64,000 bases of DNA from a virus (IMGVR_UViG_3300029928_000009:1-64000); one strand, 5' to 3'; positions 37,001-56,632 are shown, counted from the first letter of the stretch. Program-made: numbers and translations. Notes: generated from the letters alone by a model not told the origin.

Positions 37001-40000
37001 TCTTGACGAGAGTAAAGATTTAGCAGATGGAGAGACACGTTTCCGCAAGGACGAAAGCGAAAATGCCACGAGCGGAGAACTTACTCCACGCGAGAGAGAG
37101 CAGCAGGAGCAGATGGAGAAGCACAGAGCCACTGTTCTGAAAACTACCGAGAAGCTGAATACCAGAACTACAATCCACGACAGTTTGGAGGATATTGAGA
37201 ATGAGACAGTGCGCAAGGCTATCGAGAATGGCGAGAAGGTAAAGGCTTGGTATGATATGAAGACCGGGGAAGTTCATCTGTATCTGCCGAACGTAACCGA
37301 CAAGTATGATGCACAGAAGAGTATAGTGCATGAAGTTGTAGGACACAAGGGAATGAGAAATCTCCTTGGCGAAAGCGGTTATAGAGACATGATGCGCAGA
37401 ATGTATACCCACCTTAGCGCAGAAGAAGCAGCCGAAGTGAATGAACGCATGATGAAAAACGGCTGGGACTTCTATACCGCAATGGACGAGTGGGTTGCAG
37501 ACAAGGCAGAAGAAAGCGTGTGGACACCGCAGGAATATCCGAAGTATATAGGATTGAGCAACCTTTGGAGTCATATCAAACATTATGTTACCGAGGCAAT
37601 CCATAAGGCTGGATATAATATCAACCCGAATGTGGACGATGTGAAGTACTGGCTTTGGGAGAGCAAGAGAGCTTTGCAGAATGGCGATACCTATACCGAG
37701 ATGAAGAGAAACTCCTTCCTTTGGAGATTAAACCACGGCACAGGAAAAGAAACACTTGACGATGTTATAAATTCGCCTGCATATAATCACGGTGATGCAC
37801 AAGAGAGTGTGAGATACCGCAAGGAAACCAGTGATGATGCAATGATAGAAGAGGCTAAAACACTTTTCCGCAAGGGTAGCCTTGATTACAGCAAGAACGA
37901 CACGCCACAGGAAACGGCAACAAAGGATGCCATAGAGCAAAGACTGGGCAGTTGGCAGTACCGCGAAACCGAAGCGTGGAAAGACAACATGGCAAGTCTG
38001 GACACGACACAGAAAGAGATGAGCAAGAGCATAAAGAACTTTGATTCATCAATGGACGTGTATCACGGAGCAATAAACCAAAGTTCGGTAGTAGCCGAGA
38101 AGAGAGCCAACTTCGAGAGAAGAGAGCTGAAGGACCTCCAGCAAGCACTAAGGAAGCCAACCAAAGCACTTGGAGGCGGAGAAAGAGGTTATGAGAACGT
38201 GAACATGTATATCTACATGAAGAGTGGACTGGAGAGAAACCGTGTGCTGCTTGTAAGAGATGTAGCCAATAATATAGATACGAGGATAAAGAAGTTCAAT
38301 GCCGAGCTAAGGGAAAACGATCCGAAAGCAAACGTGATAACCTTTACAGGAATAGAGCAGTACAGGGATGAGTTCCATGCCGAGAAAGACTATCTTACCA
38401 CATTGTTGGAGCAAGGGCAGATAGACCTGCACCAATACTACGACAAGCTCGACAAGTTTATCAGAGACTTTGAGTTTACGAAGACAGGCGACAAAGCGGT
38501 AGACGCAAAGATAGACAAGCTGAACAAATGGTATAAAGACAGTGTAGCCGACAAGTACGATCCAAATGGAAACGACTATTCGGGAATATCGTCAATCGTG
38601 CAGTACAGAGTAAACGGACAGTTCAGCGACAGCGCAATCATAGATGCCGTGATGCAAGCAGAGAATACAATCGGAATAGACGATGTTGAAAATCTATGGT
38701 CGGCAGTAAGAGGAGTAACCGGATATGCACTGGAGAGCGACCACAAATATGGAATAGTAAGCAGTGCAGCCAAAGACAGAGCCAAGGGAATGTTCAACTG
38801 GTATATTCCGATGCGAGGATTCAAGGAAGACTCAATGGAAGACAGCTACGCATATATGCACAGCGATTCAAACAAGCTTGCAAGTTCAAGTCTGAAAACC
38901 GCCAAAGGACGAACAACCCTTGCACAAAGTCCATTAGGCACAGCAGCAGCAATGGCAGAAAGGGCAATATCAAGAGGCGAAGACAATGCCAACAAGCAGA
39001 GAATGTATCGCCTTGCAAACGCATGGCTGAAAGAACATACAGAGGAAGACGGTAATGGCGGTATGAGACTGACCGAAGTCCCTCCAGTAATGGTGAGCGA
39101 TGTCTGGTACGAGAAGAAATACGACAGCTTGGGAAATGAGTATTGGGAAGTAGCCACCCCCGACATAAAGCCTGATATGAGTGCAGAGGCAATCCGCAAA
39201 GAGATAACCGACTTCGAGAACGATATGAAAGCCAAGCAAGCAAAAGGCGGAGCAACAAAGACCCTGCAAAAGGGGGGTTATGCAAAGCCGTTTGAAGACC
39301 CGATGCACAAGAAGCAGAATATCGTTACCGTATGGTTCGGAGGCAAGCAGAGACAGATAATCTTCACAGGTAATCCGAGAGCAGCGCAAGCACTGAACGG
39401 AGAGTTGAAGAGTGATGAACACGGTAACAGATTGATGCGATTTATGGGAAGCATGTTTACATCGTATAACGTAACCTTCTCCGTAAGTAATCTTAGCCGC
39501 GATACATTATTTGCGAATAACAATATCTCGATAAAGGAAAACGCAGAGTATTATGCAAGGTTCACGGCAATGCAGGCAAGACTGTTGGGCGGACAGACAA
39601 TAGGGATGCTAACAGCTAACGTACACGAGAAAGTACGTGGTGAATACTTCAACATGTGGGCACATTACAAACAAGGCAAAGCTCCAAAGGGCGACCTCGA
39701 AAAACTGTTCTATGAGTTTATGGACAATGGCGGTAAGACCGGATTTGTAAAGACAAAGACGATAGACAACTTCGAGGACGAGATAAGAAAGAATGCCGGA
39801 GGACGGAAAGCCATGGAGACAGTAGGCAAGGTGTTACATTCTCTACCCGAAGTAATCGAAGGTCTGAACGAAAGAGCTGAAAACCTAAACCGCTTTGCTT
39901 GCTACGCCACAAGTCGCAAGATGGGAAGAAGCATAATGAGAAGTATCACCGATGCGAAAGAAGTAAGCGTAAACTTCAACCGCCGAGGTTTGGGGGCAAA

Positions 40001-41183
40001 AGCCTTTGATGTGCCGGGGGCGACATGGATAGAGAAGGCTTTTGTAGCAAATGCTGCAAGATGGTGTAGAGGTAGCTATATGTTCTTTAATGCTGGAATG
40101 CAAGGCTTGAGAACTTTACAGAAGAATATGGTAAAGCATCCTATAAAGACAACGATTAACATGATAGGAATACCTATGGTACTGGGCGGCTATCTTATAC
40201 CTTTGCTTAACCAAGTCTTGGCAGGAGACGATGGCGAGAAGTATGCAAGTCTGCCGGAGTGGGAAAGAAGGAATAATTTCTGCTTCTACCTTGGCAAGGA
40301 CAAATGGTTGAAGATACCATTGGCAATAGAACTAAGAGCGTTCTACGGGCTTGGCGATGTTGCAAGAAGTGTAGAAGACAAGAGATTGCAGTCGGCCAAT
40401 AATATATGGCTCGATGCCGCTGCACAGCTAACACAGATACTCCCGGTAGACTTCATGGGAGAAGGCATGAGCCCTGTAAATGCAGCAGTGCCAGATTATG
40501 CAAAACCAGTGTGGCAAGTAGCCAATAATGAAGACTGGACTGGTAAGCCGATATATAAGGACTACGATTATATGAAGTACGATCCCGAATATCTGAAGGT
40601 ATATGCAGGTGAGTTCGAGCCATTTGTAAACCTCAGCAAGTTTATAAACAAGGCTTCGGGTGGAACGGCAGTAACAAAAGGTGATTGGGACGGAAAGTGG
40701 AACAATCCTGCGATATGGAACAACATCGTGCAAGGTTATTTCGGTGGAGCAGGAAGTGATGCAACCCGAACCGCAAAGATAGTCAAGAGACTTGTTACGG
40801 GCGACTGGGACGGTTTCTCGACAAGAGAAGTACCGATGGTAAGAGCCATGTATAGCACACCGACAGAAAAGACTGTTTATTACAGAGGTCTGAGCAAGTA
40901 TGCCAAATACAAGGAACTCTCCGACAAGTACGACCACGACATGAGAGTATGGAAGAAGAACCAGGATAACCCGGAGATAAGCATGAAGTATAATGCGGAG
41001 CTACATGGCAACTCATTAGACAAGCGGATAAATGCGTTAATCAAAGAAAACGAAAAAGTGTTCAAGAAATGCCGCAAGATAATCAATAGCGGAGAGTTGA
41101 GCGACGACGAGGCGAAAGCCATGCAGATGCAAATGGATAAAGCAAAGTTGGATTTGGTAAACGAGATTGACAATATGAAATAA
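28032..41183 (+). CDS. 4383-aa large polyvalent (DarB-like) virion-injected protein: DdrB/ParB-like, partial SF2 helicase, LPD3-like, zincin peptidase, LPD38-like domains
   Basis: YDGNGRT (about 32943); TNGTETGKT, DESH and SAT (35274-36005); HRLYGAV..GKIYRVKTT (about 36750); HEVVGH (37329-37346); VNFNRRG...FFNAGMQG (about 39970-40100). Confidence 0.85.
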   Translation: MGGDKFDQLYNALKADGAVSGTRENFKKFVYAPGKQGYQNRLQLYNALHADGAVSSKSYEEFAQKIGLHAVNNTKQPTAQPRSKAAQQAVAYKAPQVPENFGTLDTTTAGQSWLQRQNSESKPVNRINVAKDTPVDVTSRVTGKQGKAPRVVKHNKNEFFTQTQLGDSDLALDYGFEGRTQKVEDDKKRAAALLLDQLTKSDFDEIDKLYAQKSGKLFGKGMISGITTDPNDAMGTMLGSMREASQKYGTDAIIAAYNKAIPSIFSNDSSRKAILEQSKKLGMDPDVFVQQYMLPNIEKSIHDRLVKQHMPKSDMDYVMRGVLNGVGGNLFTRGVMTKTGRDIMNEGHEKYLSNIEERIKDDGVFSKAGVAKYGNTTMGMASDIAAFAGAGKIAGGMMSGLGTGVSLLTNTPLGKRLIGGAITSTSKLVEKYGVEGAARIASFVGNNKTWLGTILTDGAKGTLRSGLTLGNYGAMQYVTGEGYDKAESGDTDNWIGGLFNSYSDEFKTGLKFGVVGAVGSTIGRNVGITGAETSNLQRIKNGIKKASVSTGAFVAESLAFRSDQIAEEWAKDHKINFMDNFIQGACENMAMKLGSGHYKQFSPKNILRSMTMAAGDKSLKLTDTEKRIFLENTDARNLVEACEALEPNHKTQGEGLASENTSGMKYKDRVAVVNKKQRDLSARDAQGNAVGKLQQFLDNKEIPLKLRMKVSAALGGTMGTKIPRASRIVIEQGANGKNIVKEYAEDGELIDAKEHSTYGGAEEDRQERYLRRQDRDFKDEYLNAMDVTTQEDMMSVMELVAKDNGFDSIQDMIHESALRNSQGDDSLDKKIKADYKKRGEEYAGTKAKRVLDIQRAVSEEYKVDLDKAMDKDFMLRTDEENEAIDEFKRRLRGMNTDKNDEAQNKAVAHQDGADLSEQTELEDSEKFTENAKTVNDRQASATAAWMEMVKNTPELEEWMKNNPDATVEEMRDNFGDDVADAYMELSKAKSMKDGFIQNTSQKIEDAVQNQVAQARFTGTMQNKQGAKVATDNTVTIFSDKDGNEYTLVGGDVIVDTAGDGSYSVGKSGLVIFRDKDGNTVQRTNFDGLTEVGTLSAEDYANRVRTTLQERKTAEIQSSETPLPEVQKEEPKGEKKSDEPNGEGESSHKEEDEPYKIGDEVELRDVLFDGEDTDKTRKYKIVGYDKDTKRWKMVGPDGIETLSAETSYLDDNIVKPNKNVPHGRKIITHHLDMLDKAESPEEKLNAISAIRNNVKNGGIITTEEQAKVNKIEQELKEQGYEIVDLTGKEYNGGEKVEISQSISVEPGDPLYDKLEDGQTIIKSVRKPQIMKDGKLYRSAEVITATREDTSVSTVLYDDKLVLGGIQKIKNPSETVLKRIDDLKAEISELEKKKAEELKKTDNNNETEEEIPKFKDGTAVPMNEKGEPDFSKMAPEQGAELYEENFGADAESTLANERKAAEKALKDANKMKISGSGWSEKVKAKKEKEATIAAAQAEIDRVDAIQKALTAKKVEGTLAASKPEIADGEEANTAGSVAAEKFQKASKVVGRKGSRTLADGTKIKGTYMIVPAESLTASHDATNGYKKSEGFPVNEEGRTINDRDYEHDKDAQDVTEQMSAKYDGQAVNQVPTVSDEGIVYDGNGRTMAGQLAAKKGTDKEYIEALKENAEAFGLTAEDVDKIEHPRVIFVPDERLPYDTETFARFNRNEKKSQSNTQEAIANSKKLSAKDVGAIISEMESSGSLDSFFNNPKAINELVKTLVEKGVIGQNEVAGLMDGDLMSAKGREFVQNLLLGAVFKEDTLKMMGIEKGLKSKALNAMRQIMDNAKLGEYSLREEIDKAVQLLYEAKRKGYTVDGLLRQPEMFGESASERYPIEVQIMAKALEGKVADFKEIMEAYNRNAQAYNTGEVDMFGDKPTKEEFINEILKLESWKKYDTRKEQQAEQGTVDDGSTKGSEPETRGDNEKGKGGVKLEDPSNAEEGLRANAEAYKKEEAKEEQPPTDTGTKKWEDMTPEEKGKEADEHPLTEEEIRNGASEENQELVAAAIAYVDGDKSLLNQIAYLKIYGDVRNRHENVPGNSGTEDGTQLAATDNGSGNGLELEPGRGSGGVAEPVDKGAGGETAPGEPESGENGEGGANPPAGKQGDSQGEGGTPGVGGLSAGSTKPEGSGTTGGKGSVGRGGRRGGSGGPSKSDAKRKPTAKQGTIFPDSKGKDVKKETSDAKAAMKAAFAKFKELNKKDKGKLSSSLLFGLENKIPTAEALEYLPEVMKATGRYGIAVMREGIYKAKEWFDSVREAISDDMKDCGFSDEDVDAFIREMWHMPWTMDGETHKIGEWSSIYGYSTLRSKLKEPLKKKFDAQVLAEPTEVKVGDKKNIEETLPFLLPQQQDDVLRAETQFFDESHKDKAHAGGKGYMFTNGTETGKTYTGLGIVKRMVKQGKKRILIITPSQAKVTDWKNDGKNLCLDIRDLDDWAKEHGTTATTEKGEGVVITTFANFRANKSLLEDQFDMVVYDESHRIMENKKGIDTEGSRQHYMLTNRNEDYALMRLEETNEDWQKLKGLAGDFDNARKKKINEIEEQYRKENPSATDRDVRNATQKLYPKDMNSFSVAEKQKFPELGKIYDDYIATISHYETDVKPGLVEQAKKSVDATKVVFLSATPFNSRENIEYAEGYLFSYPERNAMGQSGKMQRWREKMGETYDKYSQMEKTEQNGDKQAVFGELKELACKLAGMTEDEMRRYLTSKNSKGYDDGGVRFRMELGKTFSDSKEDFDGVRDRAVEEKGIVMPNLNKESVKVVSVEKHRFGEDVGKMLDNAEEWAKSNLVTTDKSNLPTMRDGTPYTISKNAIDKYLSSSATKKSDNLGVHLSVLPNLKDVIHESIETEIHPDYNKGEDGNRSIGNGYGNNVLVHRLYGAVKLDGKIYRVKTTMQEFRGGEENKPHSYEVTRIELLEGSEAAKESDSLHVSRTTNNSISAAKLLNGVGKSYDKGKKLLDESKDLADGETRFRKDESENATSGELTPREREQQEQMEKHRATVLKTTEKLNTRTTIHDSLEDIENETVRKAIENGEKVKAWYDMKTGEVHLYLPNVTDKYDAQKSIVHEVVGHKGMRNLLGESGYRDMMRRMYTHLSAEEAAEVNERMMKNGWDFYTAMDEWVADKAEESVWTPQEYPKYIGLSNLWSHIKHYVTEAIHKAGYNINPNVDDVKYWLWESKRALQNGDTYTEMKRNSFLWRLNHGTGKETLDDVINSPAYNHGDAQESVRYRKETSDDAMIEEAKTLFRKGSLDYSKNDTPQETATKDAIEQRLGSWQYRETEAWKDNMASLDTTQKEMSKSIKNFDSSMDVYHGAINQSSVVAEKRANFERRELKDLQQALRKPTKALGGGERGYENVNMYIYMKSGLERNRVLLVRDVANNIDTRIKKFNAELRENDPKANVITFTGIEQYRDEFHAEKDYLTTLLEQGQIDLHQYYDKLDKFIRDFEFTKTGDKAVDAKIDKLNKWYKDSVADKYDPNGNDYSGISSIVQYRVNGQFSDSAIIDAVMQAENTIGIDDVENLWSAVRGVTGYALESDHKYGIVSSAAKDRAKGMFNWYIPMRGFKEDSMEDSYAYMHSDSNKLASSSLKTAKGRTTLAQSPLGTAAAMAERAISRGEDNANKQRMYRLANAWLKEHTEEDGNGGMRLTEVPPVMVSDVWYEKKYDSLGNEYWEVATPDIKPDMSAEAIRKEITDFENDMKAKQAKGGATKTLQKGGYAKPFEDPMHKKQNIVTVWFGGKQRQIIFTGNPRAAQALNGELKSDEHGNRLMRFMGSMFTSYNVTFSVSNLSRDTLFANNNISIKENAEYYARFTAMQARLLGGQTIGMLTANVHEKVRGEYFNMWAHYKQGKAPKGDLEKLFYEFMDNGGKTGFVKTKTIDNFEDEIRKNAGGRKAMETVGKVLHSLPEVIEGLNERAENLNRFACYATSRKMGRSIMRSITDAKEVSVNFNRRGLGAKAFDVPGATWIEKAFVANAARWCRGSYMFFNAGMQGLRTLQKNMVKHPIKTTINMIGIPMVLGGYLIPLLNQVLAGDDGEKYASLPEWERRNNFCFYLGKDKWLKIPLAIELRAFYGLGDVARSVEDKRLQSANNIWLDAAAQLTQILPVDFMGEGMSPVNAAVPDYAKPVWQVANNEDWTGKPIYKDYDYMKYDPEYLKVYAGEFEPFVNLSKFINKASGGTAVTKGDWDGKWNNPAIWNNIVQGYFGGAGSDATRTAKIVKRLVTGDWDGFSTREVPMVRAMYSTPTEKTVYYRGLSKYAKYKELSDKYDHDMRVWKKNQDNPEISMKYNAELHGNSLDKRINALIKENEKVFKKCRKIINSGELSDDEAKAMQMQMDKAKLDLVNEIDNMK

Positions 41184-41251: not shown

Positions 41252-41881
41252 TTAAGGGAAAGGGTGCATGCCTTTTCGGAGTTTGCCCGGCTTGTAAGAA
41301 CAAAGGGCATTGTGAATTTCCTCAAAGGCAAGTTCCTTCTGCTGTTCCTTGGTAGCCGTAACAGGGTCGTTTGGAGTGAGGTAGAGAAGAAGATACTCGT
41401 ATATGCAACCGTTGACAATAAAGTCGTGAACGGCATTAGAGAGCGGTTCAAGAGCATTAGAGTTCCACCAATCACCGATAGAAAGAACGAGGTCAATCTC
41501 CTCTTTATCCTTGATATTATTAGAAGTAGAAAGAATACGCTCCTCCTTCAACACAGAAGCGAGCTTACGCTTAACCAAAGAAAGATACTTGCCAAACCAC
41601 CGGTCGATAAGCGGACGGACAGCATCAATATTCTCGATATTGTTGTCTTGCGCCTGCGCTTCATTTCGGCGAGACTTCGTGATAATACTAAGCTGCGCCT
41701 CAATATCGTAGATAACTTGCGCACGCATGATATAAATATGATATGTGTCCTTCTGTTCGCAGCAGCACCGAGTGGCTTTGCCAGTCATTTCGTCGCAAGC
41801 ACGCTGGAGAACAGGGTCAAGAGCATAACGCTCAACGGCATCACACTGAGGATTGTCCGGGTCGTGAAAAATCTGTTCCAT
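41252..41881 (-). CDS. Putative head-tail adaptor/neck protein
   Basis: Helical, 209 aa, in the terminase operon; VHDFIVNGCIYEYL motif parallels that of 42355-43131. Confidence 0.5.
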   Translation of the reverse strand: MEQIFHDPDNPQCDAVERYALDPVLQRACDEMTGKATRCCCEQKDTYHIYIMRAQVIYDIEAQLSIITKSRRNEAQAQDNNIENIDAVRPLIDRWFGKYLSLVKRKLASVLKEERILSTSNNIKDKEEIDLVLSIGDWWNSNALEPLSNAVHDFIVNGCIYEYLLLYLTPNDPVTATKEQQKELAFEEIHNALCSYKPGKLRKGMHPFP

Positions 41882-41882
41882 A

Positions 41883-42338
41883 CTAATTTGATTTTATAAA
41901 GTGATAATATACATACATGAACGCATACCCCAAGAAGAGAGCGTAGATGTGGATAAGAAGATTAATGCCGGGGAGAAGTCCGAAGACAACAGTCCACGGA
42001 AGAATCTTTCTGCACATAATGCCCAACCCTTTAGTCGGAGCCCAAGTAGTGCCGAGGTGGGCAAACAGGAGAGCCGACATGCCGACAGTAGGGACGTTAG
42101 GCATAGGCAGGAAAGAAGCGGCAACAGCAGCAAGCCAAGCAAAGGCATTGACACTTTTCCCGAAAGAAAGAAGCACAAAGACATTTGCAAGCAAGTGAAA
42201 TATATTGGCATGGGAAAAGATATACAACAGATGGTTAAAGTCATATACATTCCAAACCATAGGGTAATGGAATCCACAGATGAAAGCCACCGCCATAAGT
42301 ACAGCCAGTATATTGTTCTGCCAGTTGCGGAAGAACAT
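41883..42338 (-). CDS. Rhomboid-family intramembrane serine protease (minimal, about 151 aa)
   Basis: FSHANIFHLLAN (H....H...N), catalytic VGMSA (GxS), TM6 INLLIH; about 6 hydrophobic segments. Confidence 0.8.
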   Translation of the reverse strand: MFFRNWQNNILAVLMAVAFICGFHYPMVWNVYDFNHLLYIFSHANIFHLLANVFVLLSFGKSVNAFAWLAAVAASFLPMPNVPTVGMSALLFAHLGTTWAPTKGLGIMCRKILPWTVVFGLLPGINLLIHIYALFLGYAFMYVYYHFIKSN

Positions 42339-42354
42339 CGGACCGCCGGGAGAA

Positions 42355-43131
42355 CTAAACGTTATCGTCATTGACATTAACCAAGATTAGAGCCTTAACC
42401 GTAGGGTCGTGTCGGGAATACAACTGAATGGTAGCCGAACCGCAATCCTTGGCAAAAACAGAAACCAAGCCATTCTCAACCTTATCCACAGAAACAGCAT
42501 TAAGATTAAGCGAAGACACCTCTACATCATCAATATCCCCCTGCTTGATAGAATACTGGAGCTTGTAAGTATTACCCTTGATAATATTCTGCGGTTCGGT
42601 GGGGGCAGAAATAGTTTTAGGGTAGGGATAAGCAGGCGGTTGAGGTGGCAAACGGTTAAAGCACCTCATGATAGGAGTAAGCGTCTTGTCAGACAAGTTA
42701 AGGAAAATCTCGGCCCTTTGAGGGTTGATGTTCTCCCACCAAAGCATAAGCATCTTGTTCTTGATATAATCAGACCCAAGACGTGCGAGAGAGTCCACGT
42801 AAGCATCATTAAACCTGTCAGACAAGAACATGCGGTATTTCACGGCAGACGAATCAGACATATCAAGGAGAACGGCATTATCCGCCGTAGTCTGTCTGCC
42901 CTGTACTGCGTAATCAGAGAAAAATGTTTTAAGTTCCTCGGCAGCCGTAAGCATATCACGCTCCAGTTTGCGCTCGATATAAAGGTCATCGCCAACCGCC
43001 TCGTGGTAAGCAAGACGAGAAGCCTTCTCATCAGCTGCACGATCAGCATTAGAGGTAATAAGTGTTTCAGATTTCACAGCGTCAATAATAGTAGAACGCA
43101 GTAAAGTAAGTTGTATCGTTTTCATATTCAA
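42355..43131 (-). CDS. Neck/adaptor-like virion protein with C-terminal Ig-like domain
   Basis: Helical N-terminus; C-terminal VSSLNLNAVSVD...G.ATIQLYS resembles Big_2-type Ig. Confidence 0.55.
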   Translation of the reverse strand: MNMKTIQLTLLRSTIIDAVKSETLITSNADRAADEKASRLAYHEAVGDDLYIERKLERDMLTAAEELKTFFSDYAVQGRQTTADNAVLLDMSDSSAVKYRMFLSDRFNDAYVDSLARLGSDYIKNKMLMLWWENINPQRAEIFLNLSDKTLTPIMRCFNRLPPQPPAYPYPKTISAPTEPQNIIKGNTYKLQYSIKQGDIDDVEVSSLNLNAVSVDKVENGLVSVFAKDCGSATIQLYSRHDPTVKALILVNVNDDNV

Positions 43132-43163
43132 AAAAAATTATAAGACAAATAAGACTGATAGGA

Positions 43164-43643
43164 CTAATACTGTGTAACAGACCCGGTAGTATTCACGAGA
43201 GGGTCAGAACTTGTAAGATACCCCGACTTGTAGAAGATAGAATTGCGGAGCGAGACAAGATTAGCATCAGCCTCGTCCGCATAAATCTTAGCATAGTCAG
43301 GAAGAACAGAAGCAACATGGCGGGCAATACAGAAAGCCACCACATAGCCGAGCGTAGCATCGTTGAAATACTCCGTTAGGTCGTCGGCATCCCTACCCCC
43401 ATTGATGGAGAAGAGATAATCATCTCCATCCTTATGATAATCGGAGATGCGTTCGGGCGCAACAGCCCATAAGGCATGAAGCGCCTCGCGAATATATTGC
43501 TCGACAATTATCTTCTCCCTTGAAGAAAGAATGGCGTTAGTGTAAACAGACTCGCCCTCTTTAGTTCTGATGCGAGAAGCAAGAGACCCGATGCGGTCGT
43601 TGGCAAGGTCGAAGACCTGTGATATGTTTATTTTCAGTTTCAT
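43164..43643 (-). CDS. Putative adaptor-like virion protein
   Basis: Helical ORF directly after the terminase. Confidence 0.5.
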   Translation of the reverse strand: MKLKINISQVFDLANDRIGSLASRIRTKEGESVYTNAILSSREKIIVEQYIREALHALWAVAPERISDYHKDGDDYLFSINGGRDADDLTEYFNDATLGYVVAFCIARHVASVLPDYAKIYADEADANLVSLRNSIFYKSGYLTSSDPLVNTTGSVTQY

Positions 43644-43692
43644 ATTTTCTTGTTTTTGTTATAAGACTAATAGGACTGACAAGACGGATAGT

Positions 43693-45819
43693 TTATATCG
43701 AAGCTTCGGAGACACCCTCGTGCGTACGCTCACGTTGATAATGTATGCGCCAAGAAGGTCTGTCCATATCCGACATAGACACCCAAAGAGCGATAGCCGT
43801 AGACATGACAATATCATCATGGTTGTCTTTGCCGCGGATATTTCCAAGAGAACCATCATCATGGCGCTCATAGATGCGCAGCTCATTGTAGCAAGCCTCG
43901 TCTGGCTCGTCCCAAAGTTTATCCTCAACACTTGCAATCATATTATCAATAAGCTGAGTTTTGGTGAGCTTGTTAGTTTGGAAACCCCATTTCATTTCCT
44001 TCTTGTCAGCCACCTCCTCCGAACCGACAGAACGCTGATAGAGGTTAGGGTAGAAGTCGGCAATCTCCTCGATGATAGTAGCGAAGTGGTCGCCCTCAGC
44101 ATTAGAGTTACGTTCACGGTCGGCAGTATTGGACTCAATGACAAGTAAGGCATCGTCATAGAAATGAGCGAGAGCCGCAGCTTTCCACGCAAGAATATCG
44201 TGTCGGCAATGCCCTCGCCACCTTGCAACAACCTGCGGAACACCACCCTTCATCTCCGGCATAAGTCCCTTGCGGTCGAGAACCGTCATTACAGTATAGT
44301 CAGAGCGCACACTCTTACCGCCAATATCCACAGCCACCAAGTAGCGGTTGCGAATATCGAGAATGTTGTTGTTCGGCAGTTGCCAAATCTTCAAATCCCC
44401 GTCGTCATTAAAATTAATCTTAGCCGATTTGTACAAGTCGCGGCATTTCTTCATGCTGTACGGCAGTTGAATATCCGCCCTATAAGTAGGAGTACGCTTG
44501 AACATCTGCTGCATCTCGTCAATAGAGTAAGCGTCAAAGACAAGATTGCCAGCATTTCGGAAAGCCTCCACCGGGTCAACAGGAGCCTCAGTAGCAAAGT
44601 GGGCATGGTCGGAATATCGGTTGCGGTTGATGCGGTACCAGTTGATAGCATTAAAGCAAGCACCAAGGTTCCACAGCCTCCAGAAGAACTTACCTGATTC
44701 GCGATAACCCTTAGAGTAAGTATTGCTATCCTTATTCTCAATCAGCCACCTCGCAAATTCATAATCATTATCCACCTTCTCCATATCCTTTTCAAGATAG
44801 TAGAAAGGAATGAAAATAAACTTATAGGCATCATTATTGTCCGGGTTCATTGCAGACTGGCACTTGTCGTAGAAAAAACCAGCCATACCCTTACCCGTAG
44901 ACTCAAACACCTCAATGTTGTCGGGAATATGTTCAAGACCACCCGACACGGCAGAGAGGACATCTTCCGGGTCGTGTCCGTCAGTGGATTTCCAACTCGC
45001 CACTTCGGAGTAATGTGCGCAGTGGAAGTTATCACCACGGACATTCTCAAAGTTCTCAAAAGACGCTACCGTGATAGTGGAAGTACGGATAGGCTTCTGT
45101 CCGTCAGAAACAACAAAGTCGTCAGTGGACCCCTCGTAGGGCGACATCATAAGTTGTTTGCCATTAGCACCGACAGTCCAGCCAGCCTGCGCCTCAATAG
45201 CCTTGCGGTACATAGCCTTAATCTTTTTAGACGTGCCCTTGACCTGTGCGAGGACAATAGAGTTCCAACCATCGGGATGGCGGAAGTCCTGCATCCACTT
45301 GATATAAAGCTGAGTAAGAGTAGAACCGCCCCATTGTCGAGCTTTAAGAATAACGACAAAGATAGGCTGTCGCGACTTGCGGAGTTTCTCAAAGAGGGCA
45401 AGCAACCTTCGCTGAGGATAATTCAGTTTAAACTTGATAAAAGCACCGGACCGCTTATCGACAATCTTGTCGGTAAGATACATCGCGAACTCTGGATCTT
45501 CGCGCATGCGAGCCTTGCAAATCTCCATAGTAACCGCAGAGTGGAGAACATCAGAATACTGCTTGCCCCACACATCAGTAATATACCTATATATAGACCC
45601 GGCATGCACGACATCAGTAAAGAGCCTATTAAGCAAGCACTCCTTGGGTACATACATAATCGGGTAGACAAAATCAGCAATCTCAACCTTGATACGATTG
45701 TCAAAGTCGTAACATCCGACACCCGTGATAGGGTCGTAATCGCCAAAAATCTCTTTCATTCGGCGAGAGTTTTCTGCAACAATGGCGGTAATTTCTCTAT
45801 CAATATCCTCTAAATTCAT
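43693..45819 (-). CDS. terL: Terminase large subunit
   Basis: ILKARQWGGST, HYSEVASW, FESTGKG, VAVDIGG...DYTV, IESN, HDDIVMS. Confidence 0.93.
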   Translation of the reverse strand: MNLEDIDREITAIVAENSRRMKEIFGDYDPITGVGCYDFDNRIKVEIADFVYPIMYVPKECLLNRLFTDVVHAGSIYRYITDVWGKQYSDVLHSAVTMEICKARMREDPEFAMYLTDKIVDKRSGAFIKFKLNYPQRRLLALFEKLRKSRQPIFVVILKARQWGGSTLTQLYIKWMQDFRHPDGWNSIVLAQVKGTSKKIKAMYRKAIEAQAGWTVGANGKQLMMSPYEGSTDDFVVSDGQKPIRTSTITVASFENFENVRGDNFHCAHYSEVASWKSTDGHDPEDVLSAVSGGLEHIPDNIEVFESTGKGMAGFFYDKCQSAMNPDNNDAYKFIFIPFYYLEKDMEKVDNDYEFARWLIENKDSNTYSKGYRESGKFFWRLWNLGACFNAINWYRINRNRYSDHAHFATEAPVDPVEAFRNAGNLVFDAYSIDEMQQMFKRTPTYRADIQLPYSMKKCRDLYKSAKINFNDDGDLKIWQLPNNNILDIRNRYLVAVDIGGKSVRSDYTVMTVLDRKGLMPEMKGGVPQVVARWRGHCRHDILAWKAAALAHFYDDALLVIESNTADRERNSNAEGDHFATIIEEIADFYPNLYQRSVGSEEVADKKEMKWGFQTNKLTKTQLIDNMIASVEDKLWDEPDEACYNELRIYERHDDGSLGNIRGKDNHDDIVMSTAIALWVSMSDMDRPSWRIHYQRERTHEGVSEASI

Positions 45820-45836
45820 ACGCTCCTATATTAAAG

Positions 45837-47804
45837 TTAAGCCGACTGCATCATCTGCTGAGCCTGCTGTACATTCTGTTCGGACTGCGCCTGCTGCTGC
45901 GGAGACATACCCTGCTGCTGCATGGCAAGTTGCTGCTGCATCTGCTGCTGCATCTCGTTAGATTCAAGCTGTTGCAGAAGTCGGTCGCTAAACGGAAGAT
46001 TGACACACTGGAGATACTGCTGAATGTTGATAGCTCCAAGCTGGAGAAGTTGCAGAGCTGTATCATTGACCTGCGTCTGATAAGCGGCAGTTGCGGCACT
46101 CTCCTTGATAGAAACCTTGAACATGACATCACGAGCCGAGAGACGGTCGTATTCAATAAGGTTAGTATTATCCTTGTTGAGAATAAGCCTTCCATCATCG
46201 TAATACTGCTTGATATTGGAAACCTTCTTACGGGTAAGCTTCTCCGTAAATACAGTCATATCAGAAAGGAGAGAATAAAGCGATGTGGTGGCGTTCTGCT
46301 GTTCAAGCGAGTATCGGGAAGCCGAAGTTCCGGCAGACGGAGTCTTGCCCTGCAAGGCACCACTGACATTTGTAATCTCCCTTGTGAGGTTAAGCTGCAT
46401 CTGGAGAAGTTCGGTAGTACCGATCTGAACGGCATTAGAAGTGATAATCTCCGGTCGGGCATTAGGGTTAAGACGAGAAGTTTCGTAGAAAATGATACCG
46501 TCATATTCCGTAAACTCATCAGCAAAATCCTGTGGTGTCATATCATCCGGAATACAACTCTTAGGAACAATAGTGATACCCTTAGCCGAAGAGCGGGCAG
46601 CCATATCATGCATGACGATAAGGCGGTTGATATACCTTTGTTGGTCGATGATGTTAGACATAAACGGGTGCACCTCGCCATTGACAAACGGGAAAAGCTT
46701 AACAGTAAACGGATGGCTATTGAACTCATAAGGCGATTCCCCTTCACAAAGAATAGTGCCATCGGGAGTAAGGAAAGTGTAATACCAATAAGAGTCTACA
46801 ATAAGTTCAGCCTTGATATAAGCACGCTGCTCCTTGGGCACTCCAGCTTGGTCGTAGATTTTCTTTCTGCCCACATTGATAGCACGAACCTTATCAATAT
46901 CCCCGAGTTCGCAACGGAAACGAGCATCATCAGCGTTTGTGGCAATAGGGTCAACACATTGATAGCGCATCTTTGTTTCCTTAGTCCACACTTCAATAAC
47001 ACGGCGGAAAGACTTGTTGGCAGGAGACGTAAAGGAAAGATTTTCAAGAGTATTCTCTTCATTCTGTTGAAGTCCCGAAGATTCATCAAAATCCTCGTTA
47101 AAAGAAAAGATAGTATCAATATCATCAACAGACAAGCCAAATTCGGGTTTGGCAAATTTAGAATAAAGCTCCGGGCGAGAGCAGTCATGAAGCATTCCGA
47201 TAAGCGTAACGTCTTGGTGTCGCGGGTCAGAACCGCCTTCCCAAAATGCGAAGTTAGGATTAACATAGTCCGTCCAAGTATCAAATAACCCATCACGCTC
47301 CTCGTAACTTTCACGAACGATAGCAACACCGCCTGTGAGATAGTCTTTAAAGACGGTATTAAGGACATCGGGCATAAATGTATCTTGCCAGTTCGCCTGG
47401 GTAGTTGCGGACATCATATCAGACAACCACTGGGCATCGTGTGCACGAGCAAAACAAACAGGCTCGGTGGCTTGCTTAGCATACAGACCAGCCACCGTAT
47501 TGAAGATAGAAATCATAATATTGTTGGTAAGCGGAACATTACCTTTACGTTTAAGATATTCACGTTCCGTGACGTATCCACACTTGTAGTAAATGACATC
47601 TCCCCATTGGTCGCCAAACGTGTAATTGTTGGTCCGCTCACGCACCTCCCTAATATTCCTTTTAGTCTCCCAAGCCTTGTTGCATCTTGTTACGAGGTCG
47701 GGGTCGTGTTTGCATTGCGATAGCCTTGCCTTTCTACGCTTCACCGTATCGGTATGATGTGAAGGCATGACATCGCTAAGAGTAGGTAAATTTTTTACAG
47801 TCAT
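45837..47804 (-). CDS. Portal protein (P22/podovirus-like)
   Basis: 655 aa adjacent to terL; FGDQW, NNIM, IDQQRYINRL, SGALQG motifs; Gln-rich tail. Confidence 0.85.
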   Translation of the reverse strand: MTVKNLPTLSDVMPSHHTDTVKRRKARLSQCKHDPDLVTRCNKAWETKRNIREVRERTNNYTFGDQWGDVIYYKCGYVTEREYLKRKGNVPLTNNIMISIFNTVAGLYAKQATEPVCFARAHDAQWLSDMMSATTQANWQDTFMPDVLNTVFKDYLTGGVAIVRESYEERDGLFDTWTDYVNPNFAFWEGGSDPRHQDVTLIGMLHDCSRPELYSKFAKPEFGLSVDDIDTIFSFNEDFDESSGLQQNEENTLENLSFTSPANKSFRRVIEVWTKETKMRYQCVDPIATNADDARFRCELGDIDKVRAINVGRKKIYDQAGVPKEQRAYIKAELIVDSYWYYTFLTPDGTILCEGESPYEFNSHPFTVKLFPFVNGEVHPFMSNIIDQQRYINRLIVMHDMAARSSAKGITIVPKSCIPDDMTPQDFADEFTEYDGIIFYETSRLNPNARPEIITSNAVQIGTTELLQMQLNLTREITNVSGALQGKTPSAGTSASRYSLEQQNATTSLYSLLSDMTVFTEKLTRKKVSNIKQYYDDGRLILNKDNTNLIEYDRLSARDVMFKVSIKESAATAAYQTQVNDTALQLLQLGAINIQQYLQCVNLPFSDRLLQQLESNEMQQQMQQQLAMQQQGMSPQQQAQSEQNVQQAQQMMQSA

Positions 47805-47824
47805 AATAAAACGTTTTATGCAGG

Positions 47825-47956
47825 CAAAAATAGAGATATAGGGTTTTTGTTTTTCCGTTGGCGCAATATGGGAGAGGCGTGAGGCGATAGTAAAATGCCG
47901 TAAAAAGCCCCAAACAAGCGGTATCGGAAAAAGAAAAGCGACAAGGATATATATTT
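47825..47956. promoter_or_regulatory. Divergent late promoters
   Basis: TATTTTTG on - (about 47825-47832) toward portal; TATATTTG on + (about 47950-47957) toward scaffold. Confidence 0.5.
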
Positions 47957-47984
47957 GCCGAAGAAAACCAAAATCTTATAAGAA

Positions 47985-48764
47985 ATGGAAGAAGAAGAGA
48001 AAAAGAAACAGCCAATGGCGGAAGCGCAGGAGCAGACGGAAGAAACACCGCCTACACCCAACAGAGACGCCTACAAAGCTGCGTTCGGTGAAGACTATCC
48101 GGACGTAGACTTTGAGAACAAAGAAGAGCGTTACGGCAAGATGCTTGACGATAGAAAGAAGCTGAAATCATACCGTGAGAGCGGCAAACGTCTGAACGAC
48201 ACATTCAGCAAGAACCGGTGGCTTGCAGCCATGATGCAGGACATAACAGAGAATGACGACCCCGACTATTCGCCGATAGACTGGATGGCGGACCACGGCA
48301 TCGACATTAACGAGGCAATGGAAGACGAGGCGACAAGAAAGAAAGTGTCGGAGAAGATTGCAGCCTTTCAGCAGAAACAGGCAGAAGGCGAGAAGGAAGA
48401 CGAAGAGCGACAGAAGAATTTCGCCAAGAGTGCAGAAGCCTTGAAGAAACTCGGGCTTGACGAAGATACAGCCAATCAGATGTGGGTAGACTTCTTTACC
48501 AACATCATAGACGCAGGACTACGAGGTGAAGTAACCGAAGACACATGGCGCATGATACAGAAAGGGCAGAACTATGACAACGACATAGAGAATGCCAAGC
48601 AAGAGACCGCCATGAAAACAAGGAACGAGAAGATAGCAAACAAGGTGAAGAAGTTTGACGAGCCGATGCCTCCAACATTATCACAGGGCGGTCCGGGTGT
48701 ACAGGCAAAACAGAAGCCAAAGAAAGAAAACTTCTTCTCTGATTTGAAAGACGCAGGCTATTAA
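47985..48764 (+). CDS. Putative capsid scaffolding protein
   Basis: Acidic coiled-coil protein directly upstream of the major capsid gene. Confidence 0.65.
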   Translation: MEEEEKKKQPMAEAQEQTEETPPTPNRDAYKAAFGEDYPDVDFENKEERYGKMLDDRKKLKSYRESGKRLNDTFSKNRWLAAMMQDITENDDPDYSPIDWMADHGIDINEAMEDEATRKKVSEKIAAFQQKQAEGEKEDEERQKNFAKSAEALKKLGLDEDTANQMWVDFFTNIIDAGLRGEVTEDTWRMIQKGQNYDNDIENAKQETAMKTRNEKIANKVKKFDEPMPPTLSQGGPGVQAKQKPKKENFFSDLKDAGY

Positions 48765-48825
48765 TAATAATATATAAGGTGAAAAGACCTTCAGGATAAC
48801 AAACTTTAAATTAAACAATAACGAA

Positions 48826-50544
48826 ATGAAGAAAATTATTCAGGAAATCAGAAAGGGCAATATGGGCATACTATTGATGTTCATGCTGCTCGCAGTGTTG
48901 ACAGGCGGCATCGGTATGGCAGAAGGTGCAGTAATCGGTGCGGAAGGACCGGAGCCGCTAAGTAAAGACGAGACCCACGACCCCGCAGACCCGGATTCGG
49001 GAACAGGTCAGAACCCCGACGACGATCCATCGGGACGACTTGCACCGGGTGATACCACCGCAGGACAGAACCTTGACGGTTCACAGGCATCAAGTTCGCA
49101 GGCTCGCCAAGGTGGTTTGGAGGAAGACGAGTATGACTCGATTATCACCAAGTTCCAGCCATACCGAACCCCATTGCTTGCCATTGCAAGAAAAGTATCA
49201 CGCACAGTACACATTCAGAACTGGAGTGTAAAGCACGGACGTGTCGGAGGTGAAACCCTTGACGGAAGAACAAAGGCAAAAATCGCCCCAGAGTCGGATG
49301 GTTCAATCAAGCTGACAAAGACAAATTTCAGCGGTTCGCTAAAACCGTTCTACAAATGTTCTACTCTTCTTGTGCCGTTCGTTTCCGGTTATTCGCAGAA
49401 CTCGACTTCCACTTCTCAGATAAAAGAAGGCTCACTCATGCTTTATGTGGTTGAGAACACAGGAACCGAAGTAATCTGCCGTGCGGTGAACGGTATTCCG
49501 ACAGACGATGCAGTCGTTGATGATTTGGATGCAAAGAAGTGTCCGGAAATTCCAGCCGACACCTACATCTGTGCAGCATCAACCGCAATGTCAGAGAGTC
49601 AGTTGCTGCTGACCCCGGAAAACTATCAGCCAAGAACTTCTATATTCTACGTACAGAAGACAGGATTCAATATCGTGTTTACAGAAGACTACGAGAAGAC
49701 AAAGAAGAAATTGCCGTTGAAGGTAGCTGACCTCAAAGCCGATTCACTTTTCAAGTACAACATGCGTTCAAACCGCAGATATTGGGCAAGTGCACAGGCG
49801 CGCTTCCAAGTAAGAAACGGAGACGGTTCAATCGAAGATGTGTTCACTACAAACGGAATCCTTAATCAGATTACCAACAGCTACCGCTATCAGAAAGGAA
49901 AGTTGACAGTATCAGACCTTATCGCCATAAGCAAGTTGCAGTTCACCACATTCTCGCAGTCAGACGAGGCGTACGTATTCTGCGGTAAGGATGCTATGGA
50001 AGAGCTGATGAACCTCAACTTCGAGGGAACAACAAAGCTTATTGATTTTAAGGATACAAAAGTACTTGACCTCGATTTCCAGCTATTGAAGACAACCTTT
50101 GGAACACTGAAATTCATTTACGATCAAGGCTTGGATTCGTTAGGCTTCAAGGACGCGATGGTAGTCTTGGATTTAAATGGTGCAACACGCTACGTAAAGA
50201 GTTCGAAGAAAGAGCAGACCAACGATATGTCGAAGGGTGCTGGCGAAGTGCGTGAGGCAAAGCGCTTCATCTACACCGAGGCAGATGGTATCGCATTGAG
50301 AGGTTACAACTCAATCATTGTTCTTCCAGACGACAGAGCCCTTGGCTTGCCGGGTGCACAGATGCGCTCAAAGGTAATCAGTTCGGCAACACTTCCTGAC
50401 GATGCACAGGTAACAGACAAGATGATTATCGCCTTGACCGCAGACTACAAGACCTACAAGAAGGGTTATGTATACCAGGCAACAGTATCGGGTGGTACCG
50501 TAACATGGAAGCCGTATACAGGATATACGTCAGTAATTATGTAA
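48826..50544 (+). CDS. Major capsid protein with N-terminal hydrophobic leader
   Basis: HK97-like segments (PYRTPLL, TTNGILNQI, YVFCG, TTFGTLKFIYD); follows the scaffold; strong terminator after. Confidence 0.75.
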   Translation: MKKIIQEIRKGNMGILLMFMLLAVLTGGIGMAEGAVIGAEGPEPLSKDETHDPADPDSGTGQNPDDDPSGRLAPGDTTAGQNLDGSQASSSQARQGGLEEDEYDSIITKFQPYRTPLLAIARKVSRTVHIQNWSVKHGRVGGETLDGRTKAKIAPESDGSIKLTKTNFSGSLKPFYKCSTLLVPFVSGYSQNSTSTSQIKEGSLMLYVVENTGTEVICRAVNGIPTDDAVVDDLDAKKCPEIPADTYICAASTAMSESQLLLTPENYQPRTSIFYVQKTGFNIVFTEDYEKTKKKLPLKVADLKADSLFKYNMRSNRRYWASAQARFQVRNGDGSIEDVFTTNGILNQITNSYRYQKGKLTVSDLIAISKLQFTTFSQSDEAYVFCGKDAMEELMNLNFEGTTKLIDFKDTKVLDLDFQLLKTTFGTLKFIYDQGLDSLGFKDAMVVLDLNGATRYVKSSKKEQTNDMSKGAGEVREAKRFIYTEADGIALRGYNSIIVLPDDRALGLPGAQMRSKVISSATLPDDAQVTDKMIIALTADYKTYKKGYVYQATVSGGTVTWKPYTGYTSVIM

Positions 50545-52912: not shown

Positions 52913-55900
52913 ATGGCAGATGAAAAGAAATATTTAGACAAAACAGGACTGACGAACCTTGTAGGGAAGATCAAGTCCGAGTTATCAAAGAAGGCGAATA
53001 CGGAAGACGTTCAGCCAAAGGGTGAGTATGCTACATTAGTAGATGGAACAGTTCCGGCATCGCAGTTGCCGAGTTATGTTGATGATGTTGTGGAATTCAG
53101 CGGCTTTACTTTAGGGGAAGTATCGGCTAAGGCAATGAGCACCACGAAAACATCGCAAGATCTACTGTGTAGAGTGCAGTATGTTGCCAAAAACAATGTC
53201 TTTGTCTTTTATGACGGAAAGGACTTTTATAGTAATTGGGGCGACGCAAATACATGGGGAACTCCGACTACTGGGACATTTACCGGCATGTTTACAACTG
53301 GCGGTAGACAACCCGAATCCGGGAAAATCTATGTTGACACGACTACGGGGAAAACATACCGATGGAGTGGCAGCAGCCTTGTAGAGATAAGTGCAAGCCT
53401 TGCCTTAGGAGAAACAAGTGAAACTGCATTTGCCGGAGATAGAGGAGTTGCCGTTGAAAAGAGTTTGGAAACAGTCAAGTCCGAGTTATCAAAGAAGGCG
53501 AATGCGGAAGACGTAGAAAGTCTAAGCAATGACGTTAAGGTAAACACTGCATCACTGGAAGCAAAAAGTGTAACCTCTATAAGCACTAAAATGGTGGGCG
53601 ATGTGCTAAATATTGTTGCAACAAAAATAAATGGAGATGAGGCTACGTCATATGTGAGACCAGCAACAACAGGTACGACCGGGCTAATGAGCGCTGAGGA
53701 TAAAAACAAACTTGACAATACAATATTTGAAGAAGACAAGAGACAGATAGCAGAAAAATCCCGAGTTGAAACCGAGACCTCTCGAGTTGCAGCAGAACAG
53801 AGCCGTGTAAGAGCGGAGAACGAAAGAGATACAAATGAAGATTCACGTGTTTCCGCCGAACAGACAAGAGAGCAGAGCTTCACCACCAAGGTCGGGGAAG
53901 TGGACACGGCTATCAAAAACTGCAACACAGCTACCGAGGGAGCGGAGAGGGTGGATGCCACCATTACCGAGGCTAACGTGCTGCAAGTTACCGACAGGAA
54001 CGGAACACAGAAAACTCTTGACCTTGCTGCCGTGGTTAAGGCTAACTCTGTGGCGGAGGATGTGGACCGCATAAAAGAAAGTATGGGTGCATACAGCGAC
54101 AGACCGGATATTACGCTCACCGCAAAGGAGAACAACGTGGCTATATCGACTGACGGAGTGAAGGTGAGCAAGAGCGGTTGGGCGATTGCGGAGTTTACGG
54201 CGGAAAAGGGCAATGAATATCTTTTCAAGCCGAATGTGATTGACGGAAGCGTGTGCATCTTTGCCGAGAAAATAGACAAGGTGGAGAAGCGCGGTATCGA
54301 CTACACGTATACCTACAACGAGAACGGAACGATAGCAACGGCAACGGCTACATACTTAGGCAAGACGCATATCTATACTTATAGTTACACAACCGCAGAT
54401 AGCGGAGCAACAGACGTTGCAATTACAGATGAAACGGGGGCTGTTGTAACGGAACTGCCTTATCAATATCTTACCACTGTCGGCTCGTATTCCCCCCTCG
54501 TCAGACTTAATGCCGGGGCAGAATTGCCGAAAGACGGGTATTGCCGTTTTATGAGCCACTTCCAGGGTAATAATTCCTTGAAGGTCGCTGTGTCGTACAA
54601 GGTGGGCACGGCAGACCTGACAATGAAGGTGGTACGTGATGGTGTGATGGCAAGCATCTCGACGCAGCTGGGCAATATTTCGCAGAAGGAGAATGAAACG
54701 CGCTCGCTTGTGATGGACTTGAAAACTGCCGTAGATACATTCGTAGACAAGGATGGCTATGTGGGCATGGCGCGAATGAACGGCGATGCGAGCGGCGATG
54801 CGGAAACGACATACGGCACGGCGGAGAAAATTCACACTATGGGAGCGAAGTTCCGTCTGTGTACGGTGAAGAACGGCAAGATTACCCACCGATGCGCTCC
54901 GGGCAGACTGACGCTCGACGAGAACGGCGAGGAGGTGAAGATTGACGGAACGGACGGAGATGTGATGCTCTGCGTGGAGGATGGCTTGAACCTGCTGAAA
55001 GCCACAAAGGATATTGGCGGAAGGGAAATGAACATCATAGGTATCGGCGACAGAAAGTCTGTATGGTATGGTGTTCAGTCAAAGGAGATTCCTGCCTTTG
55101 GTTTCACACCTTGCGCTACGGTGAACGCTAAAATCCTTGACGATGTGCGCTCACAGGCTCACTGCGTGTACAATACAACAGCAATGGGTTCATACGCTAA
55201 TGCTTTGGATTATAAGATATTCAAGGACGTATACAAGAAGAGCGGTGGCGGATATGCATCCAAGCAGTTCTCTTCCGTTCTGAATATCCAATATGCACAA
55301 AACAAGAACGAGGACAATCTGACGTGCAAGCCTTATATGGGACTGCACTTCGAGTATATGGAATGTTTGCTCGCCATGATGTTCTCTGAGATAGGAAGTG
55401 TGTGCCATACCAATCTTGACATGTTCGGCGTGGGGATAACCAACAACACGATGAGCGCAAGTCTTTTCAATGACGATGCCATAAGCGGTGTGAGCGGATG
55501 GAAGTTCATTACGGCTGACGGAACGGAAAAATATCAGAATTGGTGGACAAATGTATATACAGGTGGACAGACAGCGACTGCCACCGAATTGGTAAGAGGT
55601 ATTGTCGGCAACGACAGATACTTGTGTGTGGAGATGCTTGAAGCGCAGCGTGTTCTTGATGCCGTAATGAAAGCAGGACTTGCTGACAGGATAGGAAGCA
55701 AGAGCAATATATTCCACTATGACGAAAACGGGGATATGGTATGCACGTCTGACGGAAGCGTGAATCTTGACACAGGCGAGGGCATGGAAGCGTGCAAGCA
55801 CTACTTCGTGATACGCAACGTGCCGAGATGCGAGGGGTTGGCGGACGGTGTGATGACTGCCGTGATAAATTCATACACCAAGTTGGAGTGTTGTGATGGT

Positions 55901-56476: not shown

Positions 56477-56632
56477 TCAAATTTAAATCGAGAGTAATAA
56501 ACATTAACAATAACAATAAACCTCAAGCTGCGACTTAGCAAACAATGGGTTTTGGCAAAGGCAATGGCTTCAAATCGGATGCAAAGGGGCGAAACGGCTT
56601 AGTGTAGCCCCGGTCCGGGCGGCAAATTAAGA

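Follow-up and report, generated by a model that had tools for sequence, protein, structure and literature searches.

Why would a tailed phage keep an intramembrane protease among its head genes? The question is raised by the 64,000-nucleotide stretch analysed here (the window), which comprises bases 1–64000 of a single 75,366-bp IMG/VR virus record (IMGVR_UViG_3300029928_000009) rated 100% complete. It encodes a mini-rhomboid protease and a major capsid protein (MCP) of the HK97 fold that opens with a short hydrophobic leader resembling a membrane-targeting signal. HK97-fold capsid proteins are regarded as soluble and cytoplasmic, and as matured, if at all, by soluble prohead proteases. The rhomboid and the leader prove to be real, conserved, under purifying selection, syntenic and co-varying. 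As read from sequence, the pairing points to a putative, previously undescribed membrane-linked step in the building of tailed-phage capsids, and we give a probability of roughly one half to the reading that the phage rhomboid removes or otherwise handles the MCP leader.

The features of its reading frame indicate that the leader is translated. In all 48 related loci, whose MCPs are about 48% identical, the frame opens at a conserved ATG-AAG-AAA, and in relatives an AT-rich spacer and a nearby in-frame stop precede this ATG. Residues K2, M20, L22, A23, T26, G27, G28, M31 and A32 are invariant across MCPs of this divergence, and the variable nucleotide columns of the leader are distributed 14/8/18 over the three codon positions. 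In the AlphaFold2 (AF2) model of the MCP, residues 2–25 form a helix, residues 27–104 are disordered (predicted local confidence, pLDDT, below 50) and the fold begins at about residue 105; Foldseek matched the model to VP1 (8e-21), crAss001 (1.5e-13) and SU10 (2.5e-9), and also to the P1 and HK97 capsids. The disordered linker contains a conserved stretch, GQxLxGSQASSxQxxxGGL, a form of which (TQxPGQATTVS) is shared by leaderless relatives. Thus, the basic and hydrophobic leader that the original prediction had read in residues 1–32, and the acidic disordered linker it had placed behind it, both hold.

The leader is widespread. A profile search of 1.84 billion representatives with the MCP gave 323 matches and 108 full-length representatives at 50% identity, 91 of which have the same leader architecture; these fall on either side of the tree's deepest split. 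Among 101 leader-bearing homologues, the flank N-terminal to the uncharged span has a median length of 9 amino acids and a net charge of +2.6 (positive in 99/101), the span itself has a median of 20 amino acids, and the 25 residues that follow carry a net charge of −3.5 (negative in 100/101), the first charged residue being Asp or Glu in 100/101. Most leaders end in a small-x-small site, often [F/V]AMA; of 104 leaders, 101 contain such a site, 74 contain A.A and 67 contain 'MA'. By these charge and motif counts, it has the basic n-region, hydrophobic h-region and small-x-small site of a Sec-type signal. An internal start at M31, which would yield a long membrane form and a short cytoplasmic form, is unlikely as a general mechanism: 'MA' occurs in only 67/104 leaders, and the codons preceding M31 are ordinary G+C-rich coding sequence, without the AT-rich leader of real starts.

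A different view of the same residues, which we consider very improbable, is that the hydrophobic N terminus is an internal assembly propeptide akin to a delta domain, bundled within the procapsid, unrelated to the rhomboid, and trimmed by an unrecognised protease or never trimmed. N-terminal assembly domains are indeed removed from many HK97-fold MCPs, HK97 gp5 and T4 gp23 among them, and the plain helix that AF2 gives for residues 2–25 would suit such a role. However, a basic n-region, a 20-residue uncharged span and an acidic flank, found in 99–100 of 101 homologues, describe a signal or an anchor; a separate scaffold protein is always present; and the co-variation of leader and rhomboid described below would be left unexplained.

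The rhomboid passes the PF01694 cut-off narrowly (23.6 bits against 22.6, E = 6.5e-5). The cut-off is exceeded in 5/5 and 15/43 of the relatives' records, with scores of 28.7–29.9 bits in L254 and L266. Residues H56, H61, N65, G99, S101 and H143 are invariant in 91/91 distinct phage homologues. The AF2 model has six transmembrane (TM) helices (pLDDT 84, predicted TM-score (pTM) 0.79) and superposes, as a prediction on a solved structure, on the Escherichia coli GlpG core with a Z-score of 13.7 and a root-mean-square deviation of 3.7 Å over 145 residues. The 36 top-ranking chains are all GlpG or iRhom, followed by Derlins at Z 7–9 and by unrelated chains at 4.2 or less. Lysine and arginine together average 2.2 per sequence in loop L2 and 4.1 in L4, with more in the tails, and 0.15 or less in each of L1, L3 and L5; therefore, the protein would adopt the N-in orientation of GlpG, its active site opening to the periplasmic side. 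The phage rhomboid has every catalytic feature of an active enzyme and looks active, its activity itself being predicted. The intact protease with HxxxxHxxxN, GxS and His motifs that had been read from the sequence alone is thus confirmed by family match, residue conservation and model.

Compared with the GlpG proteins of E. coli and Haemophilus influenzae (MEROPS family S54, PF01694; PDB 2IC8, 2NR9 and 5F5K), the phage protein matches the whole six-TM core (residues 93–272), with the serine on TM4 in GxS, the histidine on TM6, the H/H/N residues on TM2 and, by the positive-inside rule, both termini inside. It differs in being only 150–165 amino acids long, without the cytoplasmic domain; in its short L1 loop, which lacks the WR motif (the window has W42-N43); in having GMSA in the window where GlpG has GxSG and the relatives have GLSG; and in being encoded by a phage, within a head-packaging module, at a score barely over the Pfam cut-off. 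The window's rhomboid has no match in NCBIfam, including the rhombosortase model TIGR03902. Of four phage mini-rhomboids compared, three have that model as their best NCBIfam match (E of 2.7e-5 to 7e-3), with scores of 16–24 bits in relatives against a cut-off of 84, placing them outside the rhombosortases.

Leader and rhomboid occur together. In the window's clade, the rhomboid is present in all 16 records that are at least 90% complete; by PF01694 it is found in 5/5 and 10/10 near-complete records and in 34 of 43 records overall, the nine without it all being fragments. An apparent absence of the rhomboid near the 48 related MCP loci (tblastn, flanks of ±10 kb) was a false negative, because the rhomboid homologues share no more than 32–40% identity and are placed slightly farther out than 10 kb; Pfam searches of whole records recovered them. 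Distant leader-bearing lineages, retrieved through the MCP alone, carry a mini-rhomboid 1–2 kb upstream of the MCP in a module that reads TerL ← rhomboid ← p130, diverging from scaffold → MCP(leader); they include L075 (P0142), whose MCP matches the window's MCP profile at E of about 1e-15, L076 (P0030), L073/74 and L243/244 (P0052). In this arrangement, which is ancestral, the three genes share a strand: p130 comes first, the rhomboid immediately after it, and the large terminase TerL last. The module recurs in 27 further viral loci (among L251–L284) and is complete in the cultured Bacteroides phage BKO1-TP3. Conversely, loci retrieved by the rhomboid profile alone have a leader-bearing MCP in 9/9 cases with an MCP in range (L077, L078, L080, L111/112, L338, L339, L340 and L343). 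Searched against GenBank phages, the window's own MCP and rhomboid gave no match and the distant representatives matched three Bacteroides temperate phages; locus searches with P0142 alone and P0041 alone returned no viral locus and two, respectively. Among near-complete genomes, the rhomboid is present in 16 of 17 with a leader and in none of 20 without one (Fisher test, non-phylogenetic, p = 1.3e-9).

The main leaderless clade comprises 13 representatives and 136 loci across two scans, with some overlap. Its MCPs begin 'MAE/MDGE...', with an in-frame stop 6–39 nt upstream, and their start aligns with the Met of '[F/V]AMA' at the leader end; therefore, the predicted mature ends coincide. TerL and p130 are separated in this clade by a gap of 60–160 nt, so that the rhomboid slot is empty and the gene cleanly absent. 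Nor is the rhomboid found elsewhere in these records, either with the phage profile (0/40 whole records) or with PF01694 (0/20 near-complete genomes). In the nearest leader-bearing sister (P0052/L243), a rhomboid occupies exactly that slot. The leader is also missing from P0037/L242, an independent second lineage that branches within rhomboid-bearing 'FAMA' lineages and reads TerL ← p130, its slot likewise empty; in a third leaderless lineage (P0118/L245), the contig stops short of the slot. Two other candidates were set aside: P0050 is a gene-call artefact, the full reading frame in L241 carrying the leader, and P0074 has an atypical leader. The phylogenetic co-occurrence check proposed with the original prediction, when run, thus supports a functional link through co-retention of the two genes, empty slots in two leaderless lineages and coinciding starts.

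P0076, another representative, is an isolated case: L249:1474-3261 (GCA_031288175.1 contig) holds a lone SU10-type MCP-like gene of 595 amino acids with a different N terminus. Its neighbours are ordinary bacterial genes, and scaffold, TerL and portal genes are missing from its surroundings. A prophage remnant and a domesticated capsid gene are both possible origins.

The mechanism we favour is as follows. The MCP would be made as a precursor whose N-terminal 30–35 residues act as a signal-peptide- or signal-anchor-like leader, which would take the nascent protein to the cytoplasmic membrane and then be removed, leaving a mature N terminus equivalent to the natural start of the leaderless relatives ('MA-E/V/T...'). 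The six-TM rhomboid of the phage would be the dedicated enzyme of this step, either cutting close to the small-residue end of the leader (GG..MA), which would lie in the outer leaflet, where a GlpG-type active site sits, or disposing of the leader otherwise; it would stand in for the missing prohead protease and tie the supply of capsid protein to the membrane. Membrane insertion of the leader, its removal and the role of the rhomboid as the removing enzyme are what we infer from these data. A removable membrane-targeting propeptide fits two properties of the genomes. First, profiles for the S78, S14, S49 and S77 prohead proteases (PF04586, PF00574, PF01343 and PF03420) find nothing at E ≤ 1 anywhere in the 75.4-kb genome, and Pfam and PHROGs scans of the head-module open reading frames (ORFs) found no prohead protease, extending to the full genome the earlier remark that no HK97, S49 or U35 protease is recognisable. 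Second, the MCP is the only gene common to five complete genomes with a single clear (Kyte–Doolittle at least 2) N-terminal TM-like segment, the multi-TM rhomboid apart; p159 and the giant polyvalent protein have one marginal hydrophobic window each (about 1.6), neither of them N-terminal.

Several observations weigh against this mechanism. The 59-kb record of L253 (G090), which has terminal repeats and is 100% complete, encodes an MCP with a leader but no rhomboid at E ≤ 10 with either profile, and L250 and L247 are alike. In this small clade TerL abuts p130, the leader has a longer acidic c-region (..DEACGSTCLAMA) and the 'LAMA/MMA' leader end is still kept. The provirus fragment L307 branches far inside the leaderless clade; it pairs an intact rhomboid, beside p130, with a leaderless MCP, and its 21-kb locus has no other leader-bearing ORF; recombination could lie behind this combination. 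The distance between rhomboid and MCP in the window's clade, the window included, ranges from 6 kb to more than 10 kb. A tree of 66 representatives has three changes of the leader and five of the rhomboid, and an independent-pairs test gives two concordant and no discordant pairs, too few for significance in a sign test. The association is therefore strong and repeated, but not obligatory.

These exceptions bear on the possibility that the rhomboid acts on some other substrate, in which case shared descent and linkage within the head-packaging module would be all that associates it with the leader. The substrate might be a host envelope protein, in receptor shedding, superinfection exclusion or Tat activation of the AarA–TatA kind, or a phage lysis or ejection protein. 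We think this distinctly unlikely. L307 would be accounted for, as would the small number of independent co-losses resolved (two), and the genome does have other small ORFs with TM segments or signals (for example 11165-11536, 20177-20479, 58982-59437 and 64048-64410). None of these, however, is conserved alongside the rhomboid in the five complete genomes; the rhomboid keeps to the head module, rather than to a lysis or moron region, across MCPs only about 25% identical; and it has been cleanly deleted from its slot in two leaderless lineages.

Topology is the main argument against a picture of tether and release. By charge, the leader is predicted to insert N-in, so that its cleavable end would face the periplasm and the capsid body would end up beyond the cytoplasm; this would mean export of the body, or a translocation that is halted or undone once the cut is made. 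The classical substrates of rhomboids are N-out (type I) proteins. The AxA-like leader end (74/104) also fits host signal peptidase I (SPase I), and either this enzyme or a GlpG-type rhomboid of the host may cut the leader, the phage rhomboid being auxiliary: it would raise capacity or rid the membrane of a very large burden of leftover hydrophobic leader peptides in the manner of a signal peptide peptidase, and could therefore be lost from some lineages. Besides the small-x-small site in 101/104 leaders, this account can draw on the 'LAMA/MMA' end retained where the phage rhomboid is missing, including one complete genome, on the PF01694 gene in the control genome of Bacteroides thetaiotaomicron, and on the signal peptides that SignalP predicts on Porphyromonas phage MCPs (PMC10367356). 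The same study gives the Bacteroidetes Q-rule, by which Gln occupies position +1 of the SPase I cleavage site (PMC10367356); if the hosts are Bacteroidota, for which alone the comparison holds, the leaders depart from typical substrates, with Q after a small residue near the site in only 6/104 and making up 0.7% of the residues there. The uncharged span, at a median of 20 amino acids, is also long for a cleaved signal and more anchor-like; cleavage by SPase I implies export of the capsid protein and meets the same topological problem; and the emptying of the rhomboid slot just where the leader is lost would remain unexplained. On balance, we regard a host enzyme as a viable but unlikely candidate for the cut.

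The original prediction had gone further, proposing a capsid precursor tethered to the membrane and released by the rhomboid. The link between the two genes stands through their co-variation; the tethering and release are put in doubt by the topology and by a coupling that is not absolute. In its strong form, with an obligatory membrane-anchored precursor from which the phage rhomboid releases assembly-competent MCP, gating capsid supply, the idea is one we entertain only tentatively; it would require an unconventional topology or aborted translocation of a Sec-like leader. We know of no counterpart to rhomboid-gated capsid supply among HK97-fold viruses.

Known systems resemble parts of this arrangement. 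In Providencia stuartii, the bacterial rhomboid AarA matures a specific protein, TatA, by removing a short N-terminal piece beside its single TM helix. TatA, however, is N-out and keeps most of its TM helix as a membrane protein, whereas the MCP leader reads as N-in and the MCP must lose the whole hydrophobic span to reach the N terminus of its leaderless relatives. Rhombosortase and GlyGly-CTERM share with our system a compact, dedicated rhomboid and a signal that combines Gly-Gly with a TM helix and a basic cluster; in the MCP, the signal is N-terminal and runs in the reverse chain direction, from basic cluster through TM to GG. Prohead-protease maturation (HK97 gp4/gp5, T4 gp21/gp23) likewise involves an N-terminal MCP extension absent from the mature protein or, here, from leaderless relatives, and a candidate protease encoded in the head module. 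It differs in that the S78, S77, S14 and S49 families are absent here, the candidate is intramembrane, a separate scaffold exists, and the extension is a signal-like TM segment with a disordered linker rather than a coiled-coil delta domain.

A published remark concerns the 'Nixviridae' prophages of Porphyromonas gingivalis, in which some MCPs are reported to have predicted signal peptides (Matrishin et al. 2023; PMC10367356). Their removal is ascribed there to 'phage-encoded prohead proteases', with no mention of a rhomboid (PMC10367356). The paper isolating BKO1-TP3 does not mention a rhomboid either (PMC12694917), and full-text searches of the literature turned up nothing that connects a phage rhomboid with a capsid protein. 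In BKO1-TP3 (L246, PQ571269; host B. koreensis HM3), the rhomboid is annotated as 'glycoside hydrolase', TerL as 'tail spike protein' and the MCP as 'DUF2951'. Elsewhere, the L241 MCP is called from an internal Met, which loses the leader, and the L076 rhomboid is cut to 98 amino acids. Gene callers sometimes start the MCP at an internal Met, and such annotation errors are worth fixing.

The features are collected in Table 1. As first noted, the rhomboid sits inside the portal–terminase operon, in a minus-strand run that reads portal-TerL-p159-p258-rhomboid-p209; the plus strand diverges from it with the scaffold-like protein and then the MCP. The scaffold-like protein holds its position directly upstream of the MCP in all relatives examined. 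The flanking p209 and p258 look like diverged paralogues and are conserved in 4/4 complete relatives compared. The p130 protein is conserved, about 130–160 amino acids long, with two PAPxF/Y-I/V-S/T repeats. Its gene is invariably flanked by the scaffold gene on one side and by the rhomboid or TerL on the other, and it remains next to the rhomboid in arrangements where the two have become separated from TerL. A small terminase or a DNA-binding protein is a possible identity for p130; no homologue was found in the window's own genome.

Table 1. Coordinates of the head-module features, in window positions unless a locus is named.
Feature	Position	Strand	Basis or remark
Mini-rhomboid intramembrane serine protease, 164 aa (amino acids), 6 TM	41883..42377	-	PF01694, motifs, AF2 model
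Rhomboid catalytic S101	nt 42075-42077	-	GxS motif G99-M-S101
Rhomboid catalytic H143	nt 41949-41951	-	TM6 His
Rhomboid TM2 motif (oxyanion-hole residues)	H56xxxxH61xxxN65	-	Alignment
MCP, 572 aa, HK97 fold, SU10 type	48826-50544	+	PF17236 SU10_MCP 36.8 bits, cut-off 24.1
MCP leader, residues 1-32	48826..48921	+	Basic n-region 1-12, hydrophobic 13-about 26, TGG-IG-MA end
MCP linker, residues 33-104, acidic, Pro/Gly-rich, disordered	48922..49137	+	pLDDT below 50, alignments
MCP HK97-fold body, SU10 type	49138..50544	+	PF17236, Foldseek
Scaffold-like acidic helical protein	47985..48764	+	phrog_22323 E 9e-23; directly upstream of MCP
Portal, P22-type	45837..47804	-	PF16510 E 8.8e-35; phrog_156 E 1e-59
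TerL, large terminase	43693..45819	-	PHROG terminase match; 60-62% identity to relatives' TerL
p159	43164-43643	-	Rhomboid operon neighbour; function unknown; without clear TM segment
p258	42355-43131	-	phrog_19255 match; function unknown; without clear TM segment
p209	41252-41881	-	phrog_19255 match; function unknown; without clear TM segment
p130 examples	L243:8664-9056, L052:990-1445, L242:3445-3849, L246:5613-6047		Synteny

The source phage is Quimby-like. Its genome of about 75 kb, diversity-generating retroelement, 4383-aa polyvalent protein and P22-type portal are in keeping with the 'Quimbyviridae', which Benler et al. described as Bacteroidales phages of the gut (PMC8008677). The retroelement spans window positions 52913-58405. 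Its ORF 56633-58405 matches RVT_1 (residues 210–395), and the template repeat (56752-56869) pairs with a variable repeat (56350-56467) at the C-terminal end of a 1187-aa ORF (52913-56476), 15 of 15 mismatches falling at template adenines. Because the called reverse transcriptase ORF includes the template within its 5' part, the true start of that gene is probably further downstream. The polyvalent protein (28032-41183, plus strand) has LPD38, ddrB-ParB, ResIII/helicase and LPD3 domains and a HEVVGH metalloprotease-like motif; relatives carry similar giant proteins, that of BKO1-TP3 being annotated 'DarB-like antirestriction'. A weak match to the T7 gp14 internal virion protein (25891-26547, plus strand; 22.8 bits against a cut-off of 27), with a 481-aa ORF and then the giant protein behind it, suggests an ejection-protein block. 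Among the relatives, L247 also carries a Phage_holin_4_1 holin. Contigs with both mini-rhomboid and leader-bearing MCP (L338, L339 and L336) occur in metagenome-assembled genomes labelled Agathobaculum, Clostridium sp. CAG:217, Bacilli, Segatella and Alistipes; this implies either hosts among the Firmicutes, which lack a periplasm, or mis-binning of phage contigs.

Human gut viromes commonly contain phages of this family, and a cultured member with the full module, Bacteroides phage BKO1-TP3, together with its relatives BF1-TP2 and BS-TP4, makes the proposal directly testable. The pairing raises a topological question, namely how a protein bearing such a signal stays in, or returns to, the cytoplasm. 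To our knowledge, natural substrates of bacterial-type rhomboids are still scarce; if the proposal is true, the MCP would be an abundant and genetically tractable one. It would also add a membrane-linked step to tailed-phage morphogenesis, acting on the most abundant protein of the phage, whose Sec-like leader has been retained over a very long period.

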